This document shows, in pieces, positions 1 through 63,896 of a stretch of 64,000 bases of DNA (position 1 is the stretch's first letter; every line of letters begins with the position of its first letter). The notes under the pieces were generated by a model. It was given only the letters and a program-made list of their open reading frames with translations, ran no database searches and was not told the DNA's origin. The DNA is taken from the NCBI RefSeq assembly GCF_055900595.2, contig NZ_CM148325.1. The stretch is one strand, 5' to 3'. Position numbers and translations under genes: made by a program.

Positions 1-57
1 CGTGGTGGCGTTTCTGGTTTCTTTGATGCTACATCGCAAAGGGAAGGGGATGCGCCT

Positions 58-381
58 TTAATTATGCGCCAACTGCCAGACGGTATAGCCAGTAGTTGCA
101 CCGGCGACATCCCAGGTAAAATCTTTCCAGCTCCAGCCGCTCCCCTCGGGGCGGCTATCCCAAAGTTCTTTTGACGCGCCCAGCCCAACAGAGAACATTA
201 GCCCGAAAGTGGCACTGCGATCGCGACTCATCCCCTGATGCTGTGAATATTCATTTCCGGCAGCGGAAAGCATCGCCGAGGCGATAAAGTGTTGAGCTTT
301 ATCCTGCCCGCTCCAGCTATCGTTAGCCATATGGCTGCATCCAGAAAGTAACAATAGCGAACAGACAAAAAGAATACGCAA
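58..381 (-). CDS. yfiM: Putative lipoprotein YfiM (107 aa) with lipobox-like N-terminus (LLLLSGC)
   Basis: ORF of expected length; signal peptide plus Cys lipobox; position next to pssA as in E. coli. Confidence 0.8.
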
Positions 382-425
382 AACGTGGCCTCCAAAAACA
401 AACCCCGTACAGGACGGGGTTGTGA

Positions 426-1781
426 TTACAGGATGCGGCTAATTAATCGGTCGATGCGGATACGGCGCAAACGGCGAATGAGTTTACGAACCTTCACCGG
501 ATAATCGGCAATACTTTGCAGATCGCGATAGTGCTTAACGATGGTGGTATGCTCGCGGATCAGCTCCAGTTCTTTCTCTCGCTGTGGCGCAAGCTCCAGT
601 TGCGGATCGTGAATCAAAATGGCGTTTTCCAGATCCAGACGCCAGGCGCGTGGGTTCAGGTTATTGCCGGTGATCAGCATCCACTTATCATCAACCCACA
701 TCCCTTTCAGGTGATAGGTGTTGTCGTCGTCTTTCCATAACCGAACCACTAACTGGTCAGTGTTGACGTAATACTGTAAACGGCTCAGGAAACGACGCAG
801 ATTGATCTCATAGAGATAAGGCAATGCGCCAATTATCTTGAAAGGTTCATCTTCCGGAATGTAGAAGTCATTCGCGGTTTTATCACCAACAATAATTTCG
901 ACCTTTTTCCCTTCGCGCAGCAACTGGATGATATTGCGCACAAGGATTGCTGGCAGGTTGAAGTATGGCGTACAGATGGTTAGTTTCTGCTCGGCACAAG
1001 GCATAAGGTGGAAAATGGTCTTGTTCAACAGACTCGATTTCCCCAGACCTACCAACGGCGTTACGGAAAGCTGATCGTTGTCAGCATCGCCCTGGAAATG
1101 ATAAGCGGCATCACGCAGCTCCTGGCGGAACAGACGAATATCGTTCTTGATTTCCGGGCTTTTTGGCCGATTAACATCATCCAGACGATTAACGCCGCGG
1201 CCATTCATAATATTCTGTGTAACCCATTCAAACATAATGTCTGACATCTTACGGTTACGGATCAGATGATAACGGTCGTAGCGATATTTATCGTGCTGAT
1301 GCAGGTAAACATCGTTCAGGCTGGCACCGCTATAAAGTACGCTATCGTCGATGATAAAGCCTTTAAAGTGCAGAACACCAAGGGCCTCACGGGTATTGAT
1401 TGGAACGCCATAAACTGGAACATCTACGCCCGGATTTTCCTGTGCCATGCGGCAGTACCAGTCAGCGTTAGTGTTAGATGCCGCAGCGCCAATGCGTCCA
1501 CGTTGTGCACGATGCCAGTCGACCAGCACCCGTACATCCAGTTCCGGACGCTGCCTTTTAGCCTCATACAACGCGTTCAGAATGCCTTTGCCACCGTCAT
1601 CCTGTTCGAGATACAGGGCGACAATGCAAATGCGCTGCTTCGCGCTGGCTATTTTTTCCAGCAGCGTCTCCCGGAAGTCGGCGGGAGCGTAAAAGAAATC
1701 GACATCATCAACTGATTGAGAAATCTTGGGTAGTTGGGCAAGGTGTTGTTGATGTTTATTACGCTTAAATTTTGACAACAT
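426..1781 (-). CDS. pssA: Phosphatidylserine synthase (CDP-diacylglycerol--serine O-phosphatidyltransferase), PLD-like
   Basis: 451-aa product from second Met; two HKD-type motifs ([18 protein letters not shown]); synteny. Confidence 0.93.
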
Positions 1782-1894
1782 CACAGTGCATTTCTTCTCT
1801 GTTCATTGAAGGGTCCTCTGTGCAATGCAGACGACATAAGCGGGCAATAATAACACCAGTCCCGATTAAGTGGTCAACATTTCCAGTACCTTAC

Positions 1895-4555
1895 TCATGA
1901 TTCCTCGCGCTGGGCAAGATTTAGCGTAAGCCCAACGATCCCCTCTTCGAGCTGGATATCAACGTTAAACCCGAGCTTGCGGGCCAGCGCCACCATGCCA
2001 CGATTGTTTGGCATCGTAATACCATTCAGACGTTGCAGTCCGTGATCTCGCGTATAGGTAATCAACTTTTCCATTAAGCGTCGACCTAAGCCTAACCCTT
2101 TGAGATCCGAGCGAACCAGCACGGCAAATTCGGCATCGATGTTATCAGGATCGGAGATCGCACGCGTGACGCCGAGGATCTCTTCCGTTTGATCAATACG
2201 TCGTACCGCTACAAACGCCATTTCCCGATCGTAGTCGATCTGCGTCATGTTGGCTAAATCTTCATGGGTAAATTCGTTGATCTCGCTAAAGTAGCGGTAA
2301 TAAAGATCTTCTTTGGTGACTCGCGAAATGAATTGCTGAAGCTGTGGCTCATCTTCCGGCAAAATCGGGCGGAACAAGCAACGTTCGCCGTTTTTCAATT
2401 CTACCCATTCTTCCAGCTGATGAGGATAAGGGCGCACAGCCAGGCGACTCTCGTTATCGCCTTCAAACGGAGCGATATCCAGCGTGACATCAAGCGCGGT
2501 AAATTCATTGCCGGAAGCCAGCAAAGGATGAATATCCAGCCTCTGAATCTCCGGACAATCAACAATCAAGTTAGAAACCTGCACCAGTAACTGGCTTAAT
2601 CCCGCCACATCCAGCGGGCGTAGCGCACTACGCGCACGAATCTTTTTACTTTTGATCCCCTGAATGACCAGATAACGTGCCAGGTTCATGTTCAGCGGCG
2701 GTAGTGCGACGACGGCTTGATCTTCAGGACGCCACTCCACACCGCCTTCGCCCAGCATGATCAACGGTCCGAAAACCGGATCGTGCTCAACCACTACTCG
2801 CAACTCCTGAGCGCCAGCACGGTTAGCCATACTTTGTACCAGCAGGCCGTGGATACTCGCCTGCGGCCAGGCCATTTTTACGCGATCGAAAATAGCATTT
2901 GCGGCTTGCTGGACTTCATTGGCTGTACGCAAGTAGAGCATGACGCCCTGAACTTCTGATTTATGTGGAATATCCGGCGAGCGTAATTTTAGTGCCACCG
3001 GATAACCAATCTGTTCGGCAATATGCACAGCCTCGGTGCTGTCAGTGGCAATCCAGGTGGGGAGTGTGTTCATGCCGTACGCTTGCAGGATAGGCTGAAC
3101 TTCATGGGTATCGAGCGACGTTGCCCCTTCGACAATGGCCTGTTGCAACAGAAGATGCGCTTCTGCGGTATTAGAGGTCAGATTGCTGGGCAACGCCGGC
3201 GTTTCGCGTAGTTGCTTCTGATTACGCCGGTACTCCACCATATGCATAAAAGCGGTGATGGTTCCTTCCGGGGTGCGGTAGGTCGGCAGCCCGGCTTCGC
3301 TGAATAAACGTCGTGCCTCTTGCGAGGAGTGCTCGCCGCACCAGTTCGTCAGCAGAGAAACATACTTGCTGCGGGGATGATGCTTTACCGCTTCAATTAA
3401 TGCATGTGCGCTTTCTGTTGCGGGGGCAGCGGCGCTGGGCGAATGAATAACCATCAGCGCATCAAAATCCTGACTGTGGAGCAGAATATCCAGCGTTTTA
3501 ATATAATGCTCACTACTGGCGTCATCACGAAGATCGAGCGGGTTAGAGATTGCCACATGTTCTGGCAGTGCATCGCGCAATTTTTGGCAGGTTTCTTCAC
3601 TGAGCGTAGCCAGCTTGCCATTGCGTGACCATAAGGCATCCAGCGCCAGTGCGGCAGGTGCTGCACCGTTGCTGATAATCATCAGCCGCTCTCCACGTAG
3701 CGGGCGCATATGGCTAAGGGTTTCGACTGCCGAAAACAGCTCGTGGGTATCCTGTACTCGCAACAAACCGGCGCGCTGAATAGCTGCATCCCAAGCAGGA
3801 TCCATTCCTGCCGTGGTGTTCAGTAGTCGTTGCGCCGCCGGGCTACGTCCACTTTTAATCACCAGAATCGGTTTATTACGTGAGGCGCTACGTGCAGCCG
3901 AAACAAAACGTCGCGCATCACTTAATTGTTCGAGGTAGAGCAGGATTGCACTGGTTTTGCTGTCGCGCGCCAGATAATCGAGCAATTCATCAACGTCGAT
4001 ATCCAGGCTGTCGCCGAGAGCAATAAAGTAGGAAAAGCCCATTTCCCGCTGTTGTGCCCAGTCGAGGATGGTATTGGAGACGGCGGCAGACTGCGAAATA
4101 AACGCCAGTTTGCCGCGTTTAATCGGTACCGGCGAAAAGCTGGCATTCAGGCCTTGCCAGGGGGCCAGTAATCCCAGACTGTTTGGCCCCAGCAGACGCA
4201 TGTTATGGCGCAGGGCGCAGGCACGGAGATCTTCGTGCTGCGATGCCGGGGCGGAAAGAATAATGCAGGTTTTACAGCCTTTCTCGCCGAGCTCTTCCAG
4301 AAGAGTAAGATTGCGGCTGGCATTGGTACATAAAACCGCAAGATCGGGTGTAAAGGGCAGGCTGGCAATATCCGGCCAGGCCAACACACCCAACACCGCT
4401 TTCCAGGCAGGCGTCACCGGGAGTACCGGCCCGTTAAATCCCCCCGCCAGCAGGTTACGCATCATCAGATAACCTGCGCGATTGGGTTTCATCGATGCGC
4501 CAATTACCGCAATCGATTTTGGTCGCAGTAATGCTTCCAGTCCTCGCTGACTCAT
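1895..4555 (-). CDS. patZ: Protein lysine acetyltransferase PatZ/Pka (acyl-CoA synthetase-like N-terminal region plus C-terminal GNAT domain)
   Basis: 886-aa ORF; CoA-binding/ATP-grasp-like N-terminal region and GNAT-like C-terminus; synteny with pssA. Confidence 0.9.
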   Translation of the reverse strand: MSQRGLEALLRPKSIAVIGASMKPNRAGYLMMRNLLAGGFNGPVLPVTPAWKAVLGVLAWPDIASLPFTPDLAVLCTNASRNLTLLEELGEKGCKTCIILSAPASQHEDLRACALRHNMRLLGPNSLGLLAPWQGLNASFSPVPIKRGKLAFISQSAAVSNTILDWAQQREMGFSYFIALGDSLDIDVDELLDYLARDSKTSAILLYLEQLSDARRFVSAARSASRNKPILVIKSGRSPAAQRLLNTTAGMDPAWDAAIQRAGLLRVQDTHELFSAVETLSHMRPLRGERLMIISNGAAPAALALDALWSRNGKLATLSEETCQKLRDALPEHVAISNPLDLRDDASSEHYIKTLDILLHSQDFDALMVIHSPSAAAPATESAHALIEAVKHHPRSKYVSLLTNWCGEHSSQEARRLFSEAGLPTYRTPEGTITAFMHMVEYRRNQKQLRETPALPSNLTSNTAEAHLLLQQAIVEGATSLDTHEVQPILQAYGMNTLPTWIATDSTEAVHIAEQIGYPVALKLRSPDIPHKSEVQGVMLYLRTANEVQQAANAIFDRVKMAWPQASIHGLLVQSMANRAGAQELRVVVEHDPVFGPLIMLGEGGVEWRPEDQAVVALPPLNMNLARYLVIQGIKSKKIRARSALRPLDVAGLSQLLVQVSNLIVDCPEIQRLDIHPLLASGNEFTALDVTLDIAPFEGDNESRLAVRPYPHQLEEWVELKNGERCLFRPILPEDEPQLQQFISRVTKEDLYYRYFSEINEFTHEDLANMTQIDYDREMAFVAVRRIDQTEEILGVTRAISDPDNIDAEFAVLVRSDLKGLGLGRRLMEKLITYTRDHGLQRLNGITMPNNRGMVALARKLGFNVDIQLEEGIVGLTLNLAQREES

Positions 4556-4586
4556 ATCGGTCTCCCGCAGAAGTGACCGAATGATT

Positions 4587-5285
4587 TTAAACGCTTTCTA
4601 ACTGTTCTGCTGTGATGCTACCCAGATGTTGCGTTTTTCCTGCCAGATAGCGTGTTTTAAAGCGGGTGAAATGCTCGCCTAGACCTGCCGCCGCTTCGGT
4701 ATCGCCGGCCATATCTAACAGTGCGATGGCAACTTCGGCAGTGCAGTATTGGCCTTCAGCCTGGGCTTCACGCAGGCGATAGGCAGATAGCCGGGAAAGA
4801 TCGACGGAAATGACGGGAAGATTATCCAGATAAGGACTTTTACGAAACATCTTGCGAGCTTCCGGCCAGGTACCATCGAGCATGATAAACAGCGGTGGCT
4901 TACCAGCAGGTGGTGTAAAAATCACTTCCCGTTGTTCATTAGCATATGAGGCAGGGAAGACCACCATCGGTTGATAATCCGGGTTTTGTACCAGAGCTAG
5001 CAAATCCTGCGAGGGTTCGGTACGGGACCATTGAAACGCGACGGTATTTGGCAAGATATCGGCAATCAGACGCCCGGTGTTACTGGGCTTCATTGGCTCG
5101 GTGTCGAACATCAGCAAACAAAAGCGACTTTTAGCTTCCGCTGGAGTAATTGTCGAACAGAGACATAATTTCTCTGGCAAAAGACAGCGTTGGCAGCGAC
5201 GAACGCGATTACCGCGGGCAAGAAAAGGACGTGTTGCGCGCGCAATACGCTCGGCGCGTAACTGGAGAACAACGTTTTCGGTCAT
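4587..5285 (-). CDS. tapT: DTW-domain tRNA-uridine aminocarboxypropyltransferase (YfiP/TapT)
   Basis: 232 aa from internal Met (MTENVVLQ...); DGTW motif; six-frame ORF has 22-codon N-terminal extension judged non-coding. Confidence 0.8.
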   Translation of the reverse strand: MTENVVLQLRAERIARATRPFLARGNRVRRCQRCLLPEKLCLCSTITPAEAKSRFCLLMFDTEPMKPSNTGRLIADILPNTVAFQWSRTEPSQDLLALVQNPDYQPMVVFPASYANEQREVIFTPPAGKPPLFIMLDGTWPEARKMFRKSPYLDNLPVISVDLSRLSAYRLREAQAEGQYCTAEVAIALLDMAGDTEAAAGLGEHFTRFKTRYLAGKTQHLGSITAEQLESV

Positions 5286-5353
5286 AAGAGAGCGTCGAAA
5301 AAACGCCATTGTCGCAGAGGAGAAAACGGGGCACAAGATGCACCCCGACAAGA

Positions 5354-5773
5354 TTAAAGCGATTCGTTCAGCCAGCTATCGAAAGGTGCTTTTGGTACTG
5401 CGCCATTAAGCATGTCGACAACCTGACCGTTTTTGAAAATCATGATTGTCGGAATGCTACGAATACCAAAGCGGCTGCTTAATTCACGTTCAGCTTCGGT
5501 ATTCACTTTCACAAAGCGCACTTTACCGCTACGCTCTTGCGCAACATCTTCAAAAATTGGTGCGAAATTACGGCAGGGGCCGCACCACGGCGCCCAGAAG
5601 TCGATCACCACAGGCAGATCATCTTTCAGCAATTTGTCGAGCATTTCACCGGTCGCATTAATCACCTCTCCGTCAAACAAGTCGTGACCGCAGCGTCCGC
5701 ATTTTGCCGCATCTTCGAGCCGATCGTCGGGAATGCGATTGATGGCCTGACAATGGGTACAAACGGTATTCAT
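5354..5773 (-). CDS. trxC: Thioredoxin 2 (N-terminal zinc-binding CxxC pairs plus WCGPC active site)
   Basis: 139 aa; CTHC...CGRC N-terminal motifs and WAPWCGPC redox site. Confidence 0.95.
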
Positions 5774-10069: not shown

Positions 10070-10120
10070 AAATAATGCCGGGCTTAAACCCGGCACCTAA
10101 CTTGTCGACGAAGTGCGTTT

Positions 10121-10238
10121 TGTTCATGCCGGATGCGGCGTGAACGCCTTATCCGGCCTACAAGATCGTGCAAATTCAATATATTGCATGAGCCATGTAG
10201 GCCTGATAAGCGTAGAGCATCAGGCAGTTTTGCGTTTG
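10121..10238. repeat. REP/BIME (RIP-like) element: two inverted REP palindromes flanking an AT-rich spacer
   Basis: GCCGGATGCGGCGTGAACGCCTTATCCGGCCTACA ... GTAGGCCTGATAAGCGTAGAGCATCAGGCA; near-identical copy at 41201..41318. Confidence 0.85.
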
Positions 10239-15753: not shown

Positions 15754-16709
15754 TGAAGCAACTTTGGTTTGCCATGTCATTAGTGACAGGTAGCCTGTTA
15801 TTCTCTGCTAACGCCTCGGCCACTCCCGCGTCCGGGGCGTTATTACAGCAGATGAACCTGGCCAGTCAGTCACTGAATTACGAGCTGTCATTCATCAGCA
15901 TCAATAAACAGGGTGTTGAGTCTCTGCGTTATCGACATGCACGCCTCGATAACCGTCCTCTTGCACAATTGTTGCAAATGGATGGCCCGCGCCGGGAAGT
16001 GGTACAGCGCGGCAATGAAATCAGCTACTTTGAACCGGGCCTTGAACCGTTCACGCTTAATGGCGATTACATTGTTGATTCTCTGCCATCGCTCATCTAT
16101 ACCGATTTCAAACGCCTTTCTCCTTACTACGACTTTATCTCCGTGGGACGCACGCGTATTGCTGATCGTCTTTGCGAAGTCATTCGCGTGGTGGCCCGTG
16201 ATGGCACACGCTACAGCTACATCGTGTGGATGGACACCGAATCGAAATTACCGATGCGGGTTGATCTCCTTGATCGCGATGGTGAAACGCTGGAACAATT
16301 TCGCGTGATTGCTTTTAACGTTAATCAGGATATCAGCAGCAGTATGCAGACGCTGGCGAAAGCAAATCTGCCGCCGCTGCTTTCTGTTCCTGTAGGTGAA
16401 AAAGCTAAATTCAGCTGGACGCCAACCTGGTTGCCACAGGGGTTTAGTGAAGTTTCCAGCAGCCGACGTCCGTTACCGACGATGGACAACATGCCTATCG
16501 AATCACGTCTCTATTCCGACGGATTATTCAGCTTCTCGGTAAACGTTAACCGCGCTACGCCATCGAGCACCGATCAGATGTTGCGCACCGGACGCAGAAC
16601 CGTCAGTACAAGCGTACGTGATAACGCCGAAATCACCATTGTCGGCGAACTGCCGCCGCAAACGGCGAAACGCATTGCCGAGAATATTAAGTTCGGGGCA
16701 GCGCAATGA
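15753..16709 (+). CDS. rseB: SigmaE regulatory protein RseB (periplasmic)
   Basis: 318 aa with signal peptide; operon position. Confidence 0.95.
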   Translation: MKQLWFAMSLVTGSLLFSANASATPASGALLQQMNLASQSLNYELSFISINKQGVESLRYRHARLDNRPLAQLLQMDGPRREVVQRGNEISYFEPGLEPFTLNGDYIVDSLPSLIYTDFKRLSPYYDFISVGRTRIADRLCEVIRVVARDGTRYSYIVWMDTESKLPMRVDLLDRDGETLEQFRVIAFNVNQDISSSMQTLAKANLPPLLSVPVGEKAKFSWTPTWLPQGFSEVSSSRRPLPTMDNMPIESRLYSDGLFSFSVNVNRATPSSTDQMLRTGRRTVSTSVRDNAEITIVGELPPQTAKRIAENIKFGAAQ

Positions 16710-17185
16710 TCAAAGAGTGGGCTACGGTCGTCTCCTGGCAAAACGGGCAGGCGCTGGTCAGTTGTGATGTTAAAGCCTCATGCAGCAGCTGTGCTTCCCG
16801 TGTCGGTTGCGGTAGCCGCGTGCTGAATAAACTTGGCCCACAAACCACGCATACCATTGTCGTACCCTGTGATGAACCGTTAGTACCGGGGCAAAAAGTG
16901 GAATTAGGAATCACCGAAGGCAGCCTGCTTAGCTCCGCATTACTGGTTTATATGTCGCCGTTGGTGGGATTATTCCTCATCGCTTCGTTATTTCAGCTAC
17001 TCTTTGCTTCAGATCTTGCAGCATTATGCGGTGCGATTCTCGGCGGCGTTGGTGGATTCCTGATTGCACGCAGCTACTCGCGAAAGTTTGCTGCCCGGGC
17101 AGAATGGCAACCGATCATCTTAAGCGTGGCATTGCCGCCAGGCCTTGTGCGATTTGAAACATCTTCGGAAGACGCGAGCCAGTGA
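16706..17185 (+). CDS. rseC: SigmaE regulatory protein RseC
   Basis: 159 aa membrane protein; 4-bp overlap with rseB. Confidence 0.92.
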   Translation: MIKEWATVVSWQNGQALVSCDVKASCSSCASRVGCGSRVLNKLGPQTTHTIVVPCDEPLVPGQKVELGITEGSLLSSALLVYMSPLVGLFLIASLFQLLFASDLAALCGAILGGVGGFLIARSYSRKFAARAEWQPIILSVALPPGLVRFETSSEDASQ

Positions 17186-17382
17186 TTTCACTGGCTTTGT
17201 TGCATTTTGCATAACAAATGCGAGGACGTTTCCAGATACCACAATCCATACCGTATGAACATTTCCTCGCCTCAATGTTGTAGTGTAGAATGCGGCGTTT
17301 CTATTAATACAGACGTTAAGCTCAGAACAGCGACTTCTAAAAGCCTGGTTAACCGGGCATTAAGGCACAATAATCATACTTT

Positions 17383-19182
<1,800 letters not shown>

Positions 19183-20220: not shown

Positions 20221-20414
20221 ATTTATGAGATAAATCCCCCGTGGCTAACGACATCCCCCGTCGTTGTGTATAGAATATTCCCCCGAAGTTTAAGGTTGGC
20301 ACCTCCAGGTTGCCACGGCACACGAAACAGCGTTGGTCCCCATATACCGGTAAACTGAAACTGCAGCGAAGCAGTTAGCAGAGCCATGTATATCAGGTCT
20401 GTTTCGTGTGCTGA

Positions 20415-22027
<1,613 letters not shown>

Positions 22028-23630: not shown

Positions 23631-24010
23631 TGGCAATATTAGGTTTAGGCACGGATATCGTGGAGATCGCTCGCATAGAAGCGGTGATCGCCCGATCCGG
23701 TGAGCGCCTGGCTCGCCGCGTATTAAGCGATAACGAATGGGAAATCTGGAAAACGCACCACCAGCCAGTGCGTTTTCTGGCGAAGCGCTTTGCCGTAAAA
23801 GAAGCCGCAGCAAAAGCGTTTGGCACCGGGATCCGCAATGGTCTGGCGTTTAATCAGTTTGAAGTATTTAACGATGAGCTTGGTAAGCCACGGCTGCGAC
23901 TGTGGGGCGAGGCATTAAAACTGGCGGAAAAGCTCGGCGTTGTAAATATGCATGTAACGCTGGCAGATGAACGCCACTATGCTTGCGCCACGGTAATTAT
24001 CGAAAGTTAA
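23630..24010 (+). CDS. acpS: Holo-[acyl-carrier-protein] synthase
   Basis: 126 aa; 1-bp overlap with pdxJ stop. Confidence 0.95.
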
Positions 24011-24033
24011 AATAATACCGTTCTCTTTAAAAA

Positions 24034-24070
24034 GTAAAACCCCCGAACTGGTAAGGAACGGGGGTTTTAC
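24034..24070. terminator. Rho-independent terminator after acpS
   Basis: Hairpin AAAACCCCCG-n-CGGGGGTTTT followed by T-rich tract. Confidence 0.75.
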
Positions 24071-24429
24071 TTTACAACTTTAATTTTGTGCAGCACACGA
24101 TTCCAACAAAAATGATTATGGATCAATTTAGTTATCCTGTACAAGCAACTTGCAATCTTTAGCATAAAAACTCGAGCCTTTACGAAGAAATCGATATTGA
24201 TGAAAAGATTAACGTGACCGCTTTTTGATAAGTACATTAGAATCGGCGTCGTTATTGGATATTTTGCTGTGTTCTACGCCATGCCACTGAATTCCCCCAT
24301 TGAAACGAGTGGTGTCGTCAAAGCTCTGGTGTGGAGTGCGGCACTCGATTCCAATAACTCGCACGTTCAGTTTTGGGGAGATGTAAGGGCTAATCTGAAC
24401 GGCTGCATTCCTTGTTTAAGGAAAAACGA

Positions 24430-24510
24430 ATGACTGATTGCCGATACCTGATTAAACGGGTCATTAAAGTCGTCATTGCTGTTTTACAGCTGATCCTTCT
24501 GTTCTTGTAA
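24430..24510 (+). CDS. shoB: Type I toxin ShoB-like small hydrophobic peptide (26 aa, MTDCRYLIKRVIKVVIAVLQLILLFL)
   Basis: Short ORF with SD (AGGAAAAACG) in the acpS-yfhL intergenic region; peptide matches ShoB as I recall it. Confidence 0.75.
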   Translation: MTDCRYLIKRVIKVVIAVLQLILLFL

Positions 24511-24703
24511 CACCAGGAAACGTACTTAAGGCGCGTCAGGTTAACCAGCCAGGCGCGCCTTTAATAATTATAAATAAATGTCTGGGCAGATATTATATAA
24601 ATTCATTTGGTGAATAATTATGCTAATGTCATCAATTAAATAAATATAATGGCGTTAAGGCTTTCCTGTAAAATATTTAATACTCTACTTCCAGAGCAAA
24701 ATA

Positions 24704-25000
<297 letters not shown>

Positions 25001-25129
25001 TTATACGCGCATTCTTTACTCAAACCAGTTTTTTCACCAACGCTTCACTATGACGAATACGTTCTGGTGCCAGCTCCAGATCCTGCTGAATCAGCGCAAT
25101 GAACAGTAAATCCGGGTAATGACTCCAAC

Positions 25130-25633
25130 TTATTGATAGTGTTTTATGTTCAGATAATGCCCGATGACTTTGTCATGCAGCTCCACCGATTTTGAGAACG
25201 ACAGCGACTTCCGTCCCAGCCGTGCCAGGTGCTGCCTCAGATTCAGGTTATGCCGCTCAATTCGCTGCGTATATCGCTTGCTGATTACGTGCAGCTTTCC
25301 CTTCAGGCGGGATTCATACAGCGGCCAGCCATCCGTCATCCATATCACCACGTCAAAGGGTGACAGCAGGCTCATAAGACGCCCCAGCGTCGCCATAGTG
25401 CGTTCACCGAATACGTGCGCAACAACCGTCTTCCGGAGCCTGTCATACGCGTAAAACAGCCAGCGCTGGCGCGATTTAGCCCCGACATAGCCCCACTGTT
25501 CGTCCATTTCCGCGCAGACGATGACGTCACTGCCCGGCTGTATGCGCGAGGTTACCGACTGCGGCCTGAGTTTTTTAAGTGACGTAAAATCGTGTTGAGG
25601 CCAACGCCCATAATGCGGGCAGTTGCCCGGCAT
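25130..25633 (-). CDS. insB: IS1 InsB (C-terminal part of InsAB' transposase, made by -1 frameshift)
   Basis: 167-aa ORF overlapping insA in the -1 frame; typical IS1 organisation. Confidence 0.95.
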
Positions 25634-25827
25634 CCAACGCCATTCATGGCCATATCAATGATTTTCTGGTGCGTACCGGGTTGAGAAGCGGTGTAAGTGA
25701 ACTGCAGTTGCCATGTTTTACGGCAGTGAGAGCAGAGATAGCGCTGATGTCCGGCGGTGCTTTTGCCGTTACGCACCACCCCGTCAGTAGCTGAACAGGA
25801 GGGACAGCTGATAGAAACAGAAGCCAC
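25552..25827 (-). CDS. insA: IS1 InsA (transposition inhibitor / N-terminal part of InsAB' transposase)
   Basis: 91 aa, [37 protein letters not shown]... zinc-finger motif. Confidence 0.97.
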
Positions 25828-25877
25828 TGGAGCACCTCAAAAACACCATCATACACTAAATCAGTAAGTTGGCAGCA

Positions 25878-26645
25878 TCACCGTAAATCCGTTAACATTC
25901 CCTGAGCGTGACAAGCAGAGATTGCAGCACTGTTTGTCGCTTGTTCTTCGGCAATGGTATACAGGCAATGAGAAGCACGCTGTTGCAGGGCATTGGGAGT
26001 AAAGCCGGTAATCGCCAGCACTTTTCCGCCCACTCGCAGCATCTCATCTGCCGCCAGGTTTAACTCGCGTCGTACACCGGTGTAGGAAATGGCTAATAAC
26101 AGATCGTCAGGGGACGACGCCTGTACTGTAGCGAGTAGCGCATGCATATCGCGCACTGCGGCAGCATTGAAGCCAATCTTCATCAGCTTCCAGGCAAAGT
26201 TTTGCGCCACCAGACCCGAAGCGCCAATACCGGTCAGAATTATCCGCCGTGCAGAGCGCAACATTGTTACGCATTCATGCAGTTTCTCTTCACTATTAAC
26301 ATTTAGCGTTGCGTACATAGCGGCAGTATTTTCTTTAATCAGTTTTTCGCCGACCAGCCGTAACGGATCATCACCGCGGATTTGGTTATGAATGGGCACG
26401 GAGGGAGATTCCGGCTGGCTTGCCAGCGCTTCACTCAACGCCAACTTAAGTGCCGGAAAACCTTTATAGCCGAGTTTTTGCGCGAACTTCACGACGCTGG
26501 ACTGACTGACTCCGGCTTCGTTGGCCAGTTGCTGAGAGCTTAAATGGCGCGCCGTATCAGGTTGTAGCAGCAGATAGTCCGCCAGTTTTTTATCACTCTG
26601 GGCAAGCCCCTGGTAACGCTGACGGATACGAAGTAAGCCGTTCAT
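25878..26645 (-). pseudogene. yfhH: RpiR/MurR-family regulator YfhH (HTH + SIS domain), 3' end interrupted by IS1: native last 28 codons replaced by a single Arg codon plus stop inside the IS1 end
   Basis: Reading frame runs from Met at 26645 into the IS1 terminus; the displaced native 3' remnant (25020..25105) lies on the other side of IS1 in the same frame. Confidence 0.8.
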
Positions 26646-34082: not shown

Positions 34083-34268
34083 AGTGGCTCATTCACCGAC
34101 TTATGTCAGCCCCTTCGGGACGTGCTACATAAAATTCGAATGACGCACAACAAGGTGCCTGCCGTCCAACTTCTGATATCAGCTTAGCTATATCAACCCT
34201 CGGGCGAAACGTCGAGTTAGGCACCGCCTTATTCCATAACAAAGCCGGGTTATTCCCGGCTTTGTTGT
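34083..34268 (+). ncRNA. glmY: Small RNA GlmY (controls GlmZ/glmS via RapZ)
   Basis: Sequence recognised (AGUGGCUCAUUCACCGACUUAUGUCAGCCCCUUCGGGAC...); ends in terminator AAAGCCGGG-n-CCCGGCUUUGUUGU; lies between purL and glrK. Confidence 0.85.
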
Positions 34269-41168: not shown

Positions 41169-41200
41169 GCGAAACGGTGATTTGCTGACAATGTGCTCGT

Positions 41201-41318
41201 TGTTCATGCCGGATGCGGCGTGAACGCCTTATCCGGCCTACAAATTATTGCAAATTCAAGATATTGCAATCTCCGTGTAGGCCTGATAAGCGTAGCGCAT
41301 CAGGCAATTTTTCGTTTG
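41201..41318. repeat. REP/BIME (RIP-like) element, near-identical copy of the one at 10121..10238
   Basis: Same two inverted REP palindromes around an AT-rich spacer. Confidence 0.85.
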
Positions 41319-63655: not shown

Positions 63656-63896
63656 TTTAACCGTCCTGTTTCGTGTTGCATCTGCGTTGACTGTACATAC
63701 TCACTCCGGTCACTTACTTATGTAAGCTCCCGGAGATTCGTAAGTTTGTCAACTTGCTGAAACCCGAAACAGTTAGGTTAAAGATAACAAGATATTAGAA
63801 TCAGGCCGGGGCGTCTCGCGCTCCGTAAACACGGTCGTACATCCAGCCGGTAGCCTGGTTCCTTGCATTGAGTGATGTACGGAGTTTATAGAGCAA

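Follow-up and report, generated by a model that had tools for sequence, protein, structure and literature searches.

An intact IS1A-type IS1 lies within the 3′ end of yfhH in the 64-kb stretch of DNA analysed here (the window), and this arrangement almost certainly arose by a single, recent and simple transposition into an otherwise ordinary Escherichia coli chromosome. Both the element and the mechanism are already known, and this textbook event reveals nothing new on IS1 biology. The insertion itself appears to be a polymorphism at the strain level, either neutral or slightly deleterious. The coordinates of the element, its flanks and the neighbouring features are collected in Table 1.

Results

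Reading of the sequence between 24700 and 26300, combined with a script, defined the element as 768 bp in length. The standard IS1 orientation corresponds to the reverse complement of the window, with the transposase on the minus strand. A repeat finder identified the terminal inverted repeats, which resemble those of canonical IS1. The first-pass annotation had described a complete 768-bp IS1 with exact coordinates, and indeed the inverted repeats, insA, the A6C site and InsAB′ are all present. The conceptual InsAB′ fusion comprises 232 aa with no internal stops, and scores 245 bits against the NCBIfam model NF033558 'IS1 family transposase' (cut-off 100). It also matches Pfam PF03811, PF12759 and PF03400 (Zn_ribbon_InsA, HTH_Tnp_IS1 and DDE_Tnp_IS1) with E-values from 1.7e-20 to 7.5e-78, the latter belonging to DDE_Tnp_IS1. 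Over the entire 768 bp, the element shares 100% identity with many copies on E. coli chromosomes and plasmids, annotated in RefSeq as 'IS1-like element IS1A family transposase'. Full-length IS1 is found in 4,950 of the 5,426 complete E. coli genomes searched, at a median of 11 places per genome. Every defining feature of the IS1 family that can be tested in silico is present, and the sequence requirements for transposition are predicted to be intact in this copy.

Table 1. Positions of the IS1 element, its target-site duplication and other features in the window
Feature	Position	Strand	Basis or remark
Target-site duplication, left copy GTAAATCCG	25106..25114		Identical to 25883-25891; single copy in strain 100117
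Target-site duplication, right copy GTAAATCCG	25883..25891		Sequence read and script
Complete IS1 (IS1A type), 768 bp	25115..25882	-	Transcription codirectional with yfhH and yfhL
IRL, left terminal inverted repeat GGTGATGCTGCCAACTTACTGAT, insA-proximal	25860..25882	-	Repeat finder
IRR, right terminal inverted repeat, yfhL-facing	25115..25137	-	Repeat finder; 23 nt, 78% complementary
insA, 91 aa, GTG start	25552..25827	-	Pfam Zn_ribbon_InsA and HTH_Tnp_IS1
A6C (AAAAAAC) programmed -1 frameshift site	25570..25576	-	IS1 position 307; coordinates mapped from sequence
insB′ reading frame, fused to insA by -1 frameshift to give InsAB′	25130..25633	-	NF033558, DDE_Tnp_IS1
Promoter-like site in IRL, into insA (CTGCCA-16-TATGAT)	25848..25875	-	Consensus scan
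Hybrid-promoter-like site, -35 TTGGCA in IRL, 18-nt spacer, TAACAT in flank	25869..25898	+	Consensus match, 9/12
Truncated yfhH, 255 aa	25878..26645	-	NCBIfam NF008590 at profile positions 1-254 of 282
Detached 3′ yfhH remnant, codons 252-282 and stop, with left duplication copy	25020..25114	-	Reconstruction; native TGA 25020-25022
Perfect TATAAT hexamer, yfhH-yfhL spacer, unaffected by insertion	25000..25005	-	Sequence
yfhL, 2[4Fe-4S] ferredoxin, intact	24704..24964	-	NCBIfam NF033683, 136 bits, cut-off 86; annotation of relatives
AsrC	16670-17501	-	Rfam
rncO	20285-20499	+	Rfam
ohsC	24031-24107	-	Rfam
GlmY	34083-34230	+	Rfam
iscRS stability element	63785-63894	+	Rfam

The 9-mer GTAAATCCG directly abuts the element on both sides, and neither strand of the window contains it anywhere else. 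Re-inspection by script found the two copies identical and located at the exact IS1 ends, in line with the perfect 9-bp target-site duplication claimed from the first reading. For comparison, a given 9-mer would match by chance at an exact boundary with a probability of 4^-9 (~4e-6). The site is uninterrupted and carries one 9-mer in eight close relatives and in K-12. In one of these relatives, E. coli strain 100117 (NZ_CM128596.1; from human stool in Gambia), the empty site reads GTAAATCCGTTAGC, which differs from the predicted string by a SNP 4 bp beyond the 9-mer. In K-12 and several other genomes it reads GCAAATCCG, with a one-base SNP within the 9-mer. The empty-site string predicted in the first-pass annotation is thus matched by neither genome checked. 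Both 9-mer copies in the window bear the strain's own T allele, as expected because it was the strain's own target that was duplicated.

The window aligns with strain 100117 at 1-5403, 4700-25114 and 25880-64000, the last of which consists of two overlapping alignments. These alignments contain 17 SNPs and no gaps, and the two meeting at IS1 overlap by 12 bp in 100117, on its single 9-mer. Across the 64 kb, the two sequences therefore differ structurally by the IS1 alone, which is also the sole insertion or deletion. Such a pattern is the signature of a simple insertion, without deletion, inversion or composite structure, and the reading as a simple transposition is upheld by the one 9-mer at the 100117 empty site and the gap-free, collinear flanks. 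The reconstructed empty site (window 24615-26391) reaches at least 99% identity in only eight of the 5,426 complete E. coli genomes (100117, 100248, E200086, E400634, E500002, E600003, AST85 and Z0117EC0005, all labelled E. coli) and at most 97.4% in all others; the lineage of the window is thus poorly represented in the set of complete genomes.

An IS1-rich background typical of Shigella or B-type E. coli had also been suggested. Counting in the yfhL/yfhH flank, the eight nearest genomes have 4-15 matching places per chromosome, compared with a collection median of 11 per genome; their IS1 load is ordinary. Given these ordinary numbers in the nearest relatives, the Shigella-like or IS1-rich background lacks support among the E. 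coli genomes searched. Nor does a window that differs from an ordinary E. coli by one insertion over 64 kb look Shigella-like, in a comparison that covered E. coli genomes. The B-type assignment is excluded: REL606, an E. coli B strain covered by the search, lacks the junction, and no B strain is among the eight genomes with at least 99% identity at the empty site.

Searching with a 120-bp query over the left junction, at a coverage of at least 80%, yielded 0 places in the 5,426 complete E. coli genomes, in agreement with the proposal that the insertion is strain-specific. At the same coverage, the right-junction query matched four places in complete E. coli genomes, none of which represents the same insertion: three were pieced together over 500-640 bp from IS1 copies that lie downstream of yfhL, and the fourth is a chance match of 89.8%. 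The absence of IS1 from this locus in K-12 MG1655, as stated in the first-pass annotation, was confirmed: there, yfhH and yfhL are adjacent, intact and uninterrupted. The junction 32-mer AATGAACAGTAAATCCGGGTAATGACTCCAAC gave 0 matches in GTDB species representatives and likewise 0 in JGI metagenome contigs. At the protein level, the strain's intact 282-aa YfhH allele is recorded in 397 contigs, whereas the exact 255-aa truncated product is recorded in one, from the Logan assembly of SRR27886137; an exact look-up of the 279-aa ORF, which has a longer start for truncated YfhH, returned nothing on record. Along 3,792 bp, the SRR27886137 contig matches the window at 100% identity; it shares the yfhH-IS1 junction and stops within the left inverted repeat of IS1, 24 bp after the truncated gene ends. 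This sample may be the window's own strain, and hence perhaps no independent confirmation. As the 5,426 complete E. coli genomes all lack it, the junction uniquely marks the strain or sub-lineage, which is of value mainly for strain typing.

The first-pass annotation located the insertion between yfhL and yfhH and, at the same time, inside the 3′ end of yfhH. Only the latter description is correct, as IS1 interrupts the yfhH coding sequence at codon 255 of 282, upstream of the native stop, and the 9-mer that was duplicated covers codons 252-255. Upstream of IS1, the gene now ends ...T-D-L-R-stop; the IS1 end completes the Arg codon and contributes the TGA (25878-25880). The truncated YfhH thus comprises 254 native residues plus Arg, and has lost 28 C-terminal residues. 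Intact YfhH is a MurR/RpiR regulator of 282 aa (849 nt), with an HTH_6 domain at residues 1-77 and a Pfam SIS domain at residues 128-258; its function as a regulator is still unknown (PMC9308461). The cut at residue 254 is located within the SIS domain, in a conserved TDLLF helix aligned to the effector-binding domain of the E. coli MurR structure 7en5. As this is the last conserved helix of the sugar-phosphate-sensing domain, the truncated YfhH is probably destabilised or impaired. The insertion accordingly provides a natural C-terminal truncation allele in the MurR/RpiR family.

Of the 17 SNPs that distinguish the window from 100117, three fall within yfhH (window 25895, 26345 and 26374; G91D, K101E and one synonymous). 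For both amino-acid-changing SNPs, the window allele is common to all four other E. coli genomes compared, K-12 among them; for the synonymous one, it is present in three of the four, and the divergent O78 strain 3 agrees with 100117. Judged from these alleles, the yfhH SNPs are derived in the eight-genome 100117 group and not in the window, which rules out pseudogene decay as the cause of the SNP excess in yfhH. The gene is otherwise free of decay, the IS1 being its only damage. This lack of decay, together with the near absence of the junction elsewhere, points to a recent insertion event.

The intact yfhL is downstream of IS1, and 150 nt separate its ATG (24962-24964) from the end of IS1 at 25115, matching the estimate of about 150 bp made at first reading. 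These 150 nt retain the yfhH-yfhL spacer with its TATAAT hexamer, a possible -10 element of a promoter belonging to yfhL itself; the consensus scan left it unreported because no -35 passes. Promoter activity of the yfhL 5′ region was reported earlier, as stated in PMC2984482. Since its likely own promoter region is untouched, yfhL would at most lose read-through from yfhH.

The consensus scan of the region returned 5 sites, compared with 3.1 expected by chance. At the IRR end, it found no promoter-like site facing yfhL; by eye, this end offers TTGGAG followed by TGTTCA, a poor promoter match. Within IRL, a site directed into insA is, by its position, presumably the IS1 transposase promoter pIRL. 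Across the IRL junction, the hybrid-promoter-like site is directed antisense into truncated yfhH and away from yfhL. Its TAACAT hexamer (25893-25898) includes position 25895, at which strain 100117 has G (TAGCAT). The IS1 inverted repeat is known to bear an outward -35 that gives rise to hybrid promoters, for example where IS1 lies upstream of afaA in ST131 (PMC8764528).

Ten E. coli genomes that cover most of the 1.6-kb region were considered as candidates for the same event. The six that were opened (F404, 361, HB37, IPCEC31, O78 strain 3 and NMBU_W05E18) carry IS1 elsewhere, either in the acpS-shoB-yfhL spacer or beside a yfhL deletion, and were rejected. In other complete E. coli genomes, the acpS-ohsC/shoB-yfhL spacer (window ~24010-24700) harbours IS1 at differing positions, as isoforms 91-99.9% identical to the window copy; this AT-rich spacer seems to be a hotspot for IS1 in this neighbourhood. 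The yfhL gene of F404, directly adjacent to an IS1, is annotated as 276 nt, not 261, and extends into the IS end. Elsewhere in the window, two 119-bp intergenic repeats of 89% identity are found at 10120-10238 (yfiE-srmB spacer) and 41200-41318 (glyA-yphH spacer), with a sequence typical of REP/BIME elements (GCCGGATGCGGCGTGAACGCCTTATCCGGCCTAC...). The former overlaps a match to Rfam ES036 (CssrF) at 10162-10204. The known RNAs expected here are all intact at Rfam gathering thresholds (Table 1).

Discussion

The present data enable us to propose the most probable course of events at this locus. InsAB′ would have cut the target GTAAATCCG with a 9-bp stagger, and subsequent repair would have duplicated this 9-mer around the inserted element. 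The last 28 residues of YfhH have thereby been swapped for one Arg and a stop derived from the IS1 end.

An origin of the junction in the assembly process, with an IS1 copy misplaced at the locus by the assembler, deserves consideration given that multi-copy IS1 often breaks or confuses short-read assemblies and that the Logan contig ends inside the IS1 end. This explanation is nevertheless exceedingly improbable, as a mis-join would not leave the strain's own target perfectly duplicated, over 9 bp, at the exact IS ends, and that same Logan contig has the yfhH-IS1 junction. We assign an equally negligible chance to an old insertion that was precisely excised in the relatives, or to the element being a boundary of a composite transposon or of a rearrangement brought about by IS1. 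IS1 rarely excises precisely, and the site is uninterrupted, with one 9-mer, in all eight close relatives and K-12; moreover, the window holds only one IS1, and its flanks are collinear over 64 kb with neither deletion nor inversion.

The transposition may, on the other hand, have been retained by selection, if it rewires expression through silencing or truncation of YfhH, an antisense hybrid promoter, or altered levels of the yfhL ferredoxin. The TTGGCA-18-TAACAT arrangement on the plus strand across the IRL junction, the documented formation of IS1 hybrid promoters via the outward -35 (PMC8764528), and the transcription of IS1 in the same direction as yfhL are all consistent with this proposal. 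However, the hybrid-like site matches the consensus at 9 of 12 positions in a scan that yields little beyond its chance expectation, it is directed away from yfhL, and the scan shows nothing promoter-like at the IRR end in the direction of yfhL. Furthermore, the insertion shows no spread or recurrence at this site, being present in one other assembly and in 0 of 5,426 genomes. Selection is thus very unlikely. There is correspondingly a slim chance that the insertion is non-neutral, either because the truncated YfhH, which keeps the HTH and most of the SIS domain, would be effector-blind, or because antisense transcription from the hybrid promoter would silence yfhH. If so, expression of the YfhH regulon or of the yfhL ferredoxin would be changed in this lineage. 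A single, recent and simple transposition remains by far the preferred explanation.

Compared with the IS1 copies in the acpS-shoB-yfhL region of the six opened E. coli genomes, the present one belongs to the same family, has the same orientation (that of the yfhL/yfhH strand) and lies within ~1.5 kb. It differs in that five of those six copies are located downstream of yfhL, in or beside the AT-rich shoB/ohsC spacer, with the full 849 nt of yfhH preserved; the IS1 of NMBU_W05E18 adjoins a region without yfhL, and none of the six genomes has IS1 in yfhH. The IRL junction is reminiscent of the IS1 hybrid promoter at afaA in ST131 (PMC8764528), as 18 nt separate an outward -35 (TTGGCA) within the IS1 inverted repeat from a flanking hexamer that resembles a -10. 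Unlike that promoter, the predicted site here is a weak consensus match, directed antisense into truncated yfhH and not toward a downstream gene. With respect to IS1 of the IS1A/IS1R type in E. coli, what sets this copy apart is solely its position at yfhH codon 255, which is unseen in 5,426 complete E. coli genomes. The element itself shows no difference, and shares with this type the length of 768 bp, the 23-bp imperfect inverted repeats, insA and insB′, the A6C -1 frameshift and the 9-bp target duplication.
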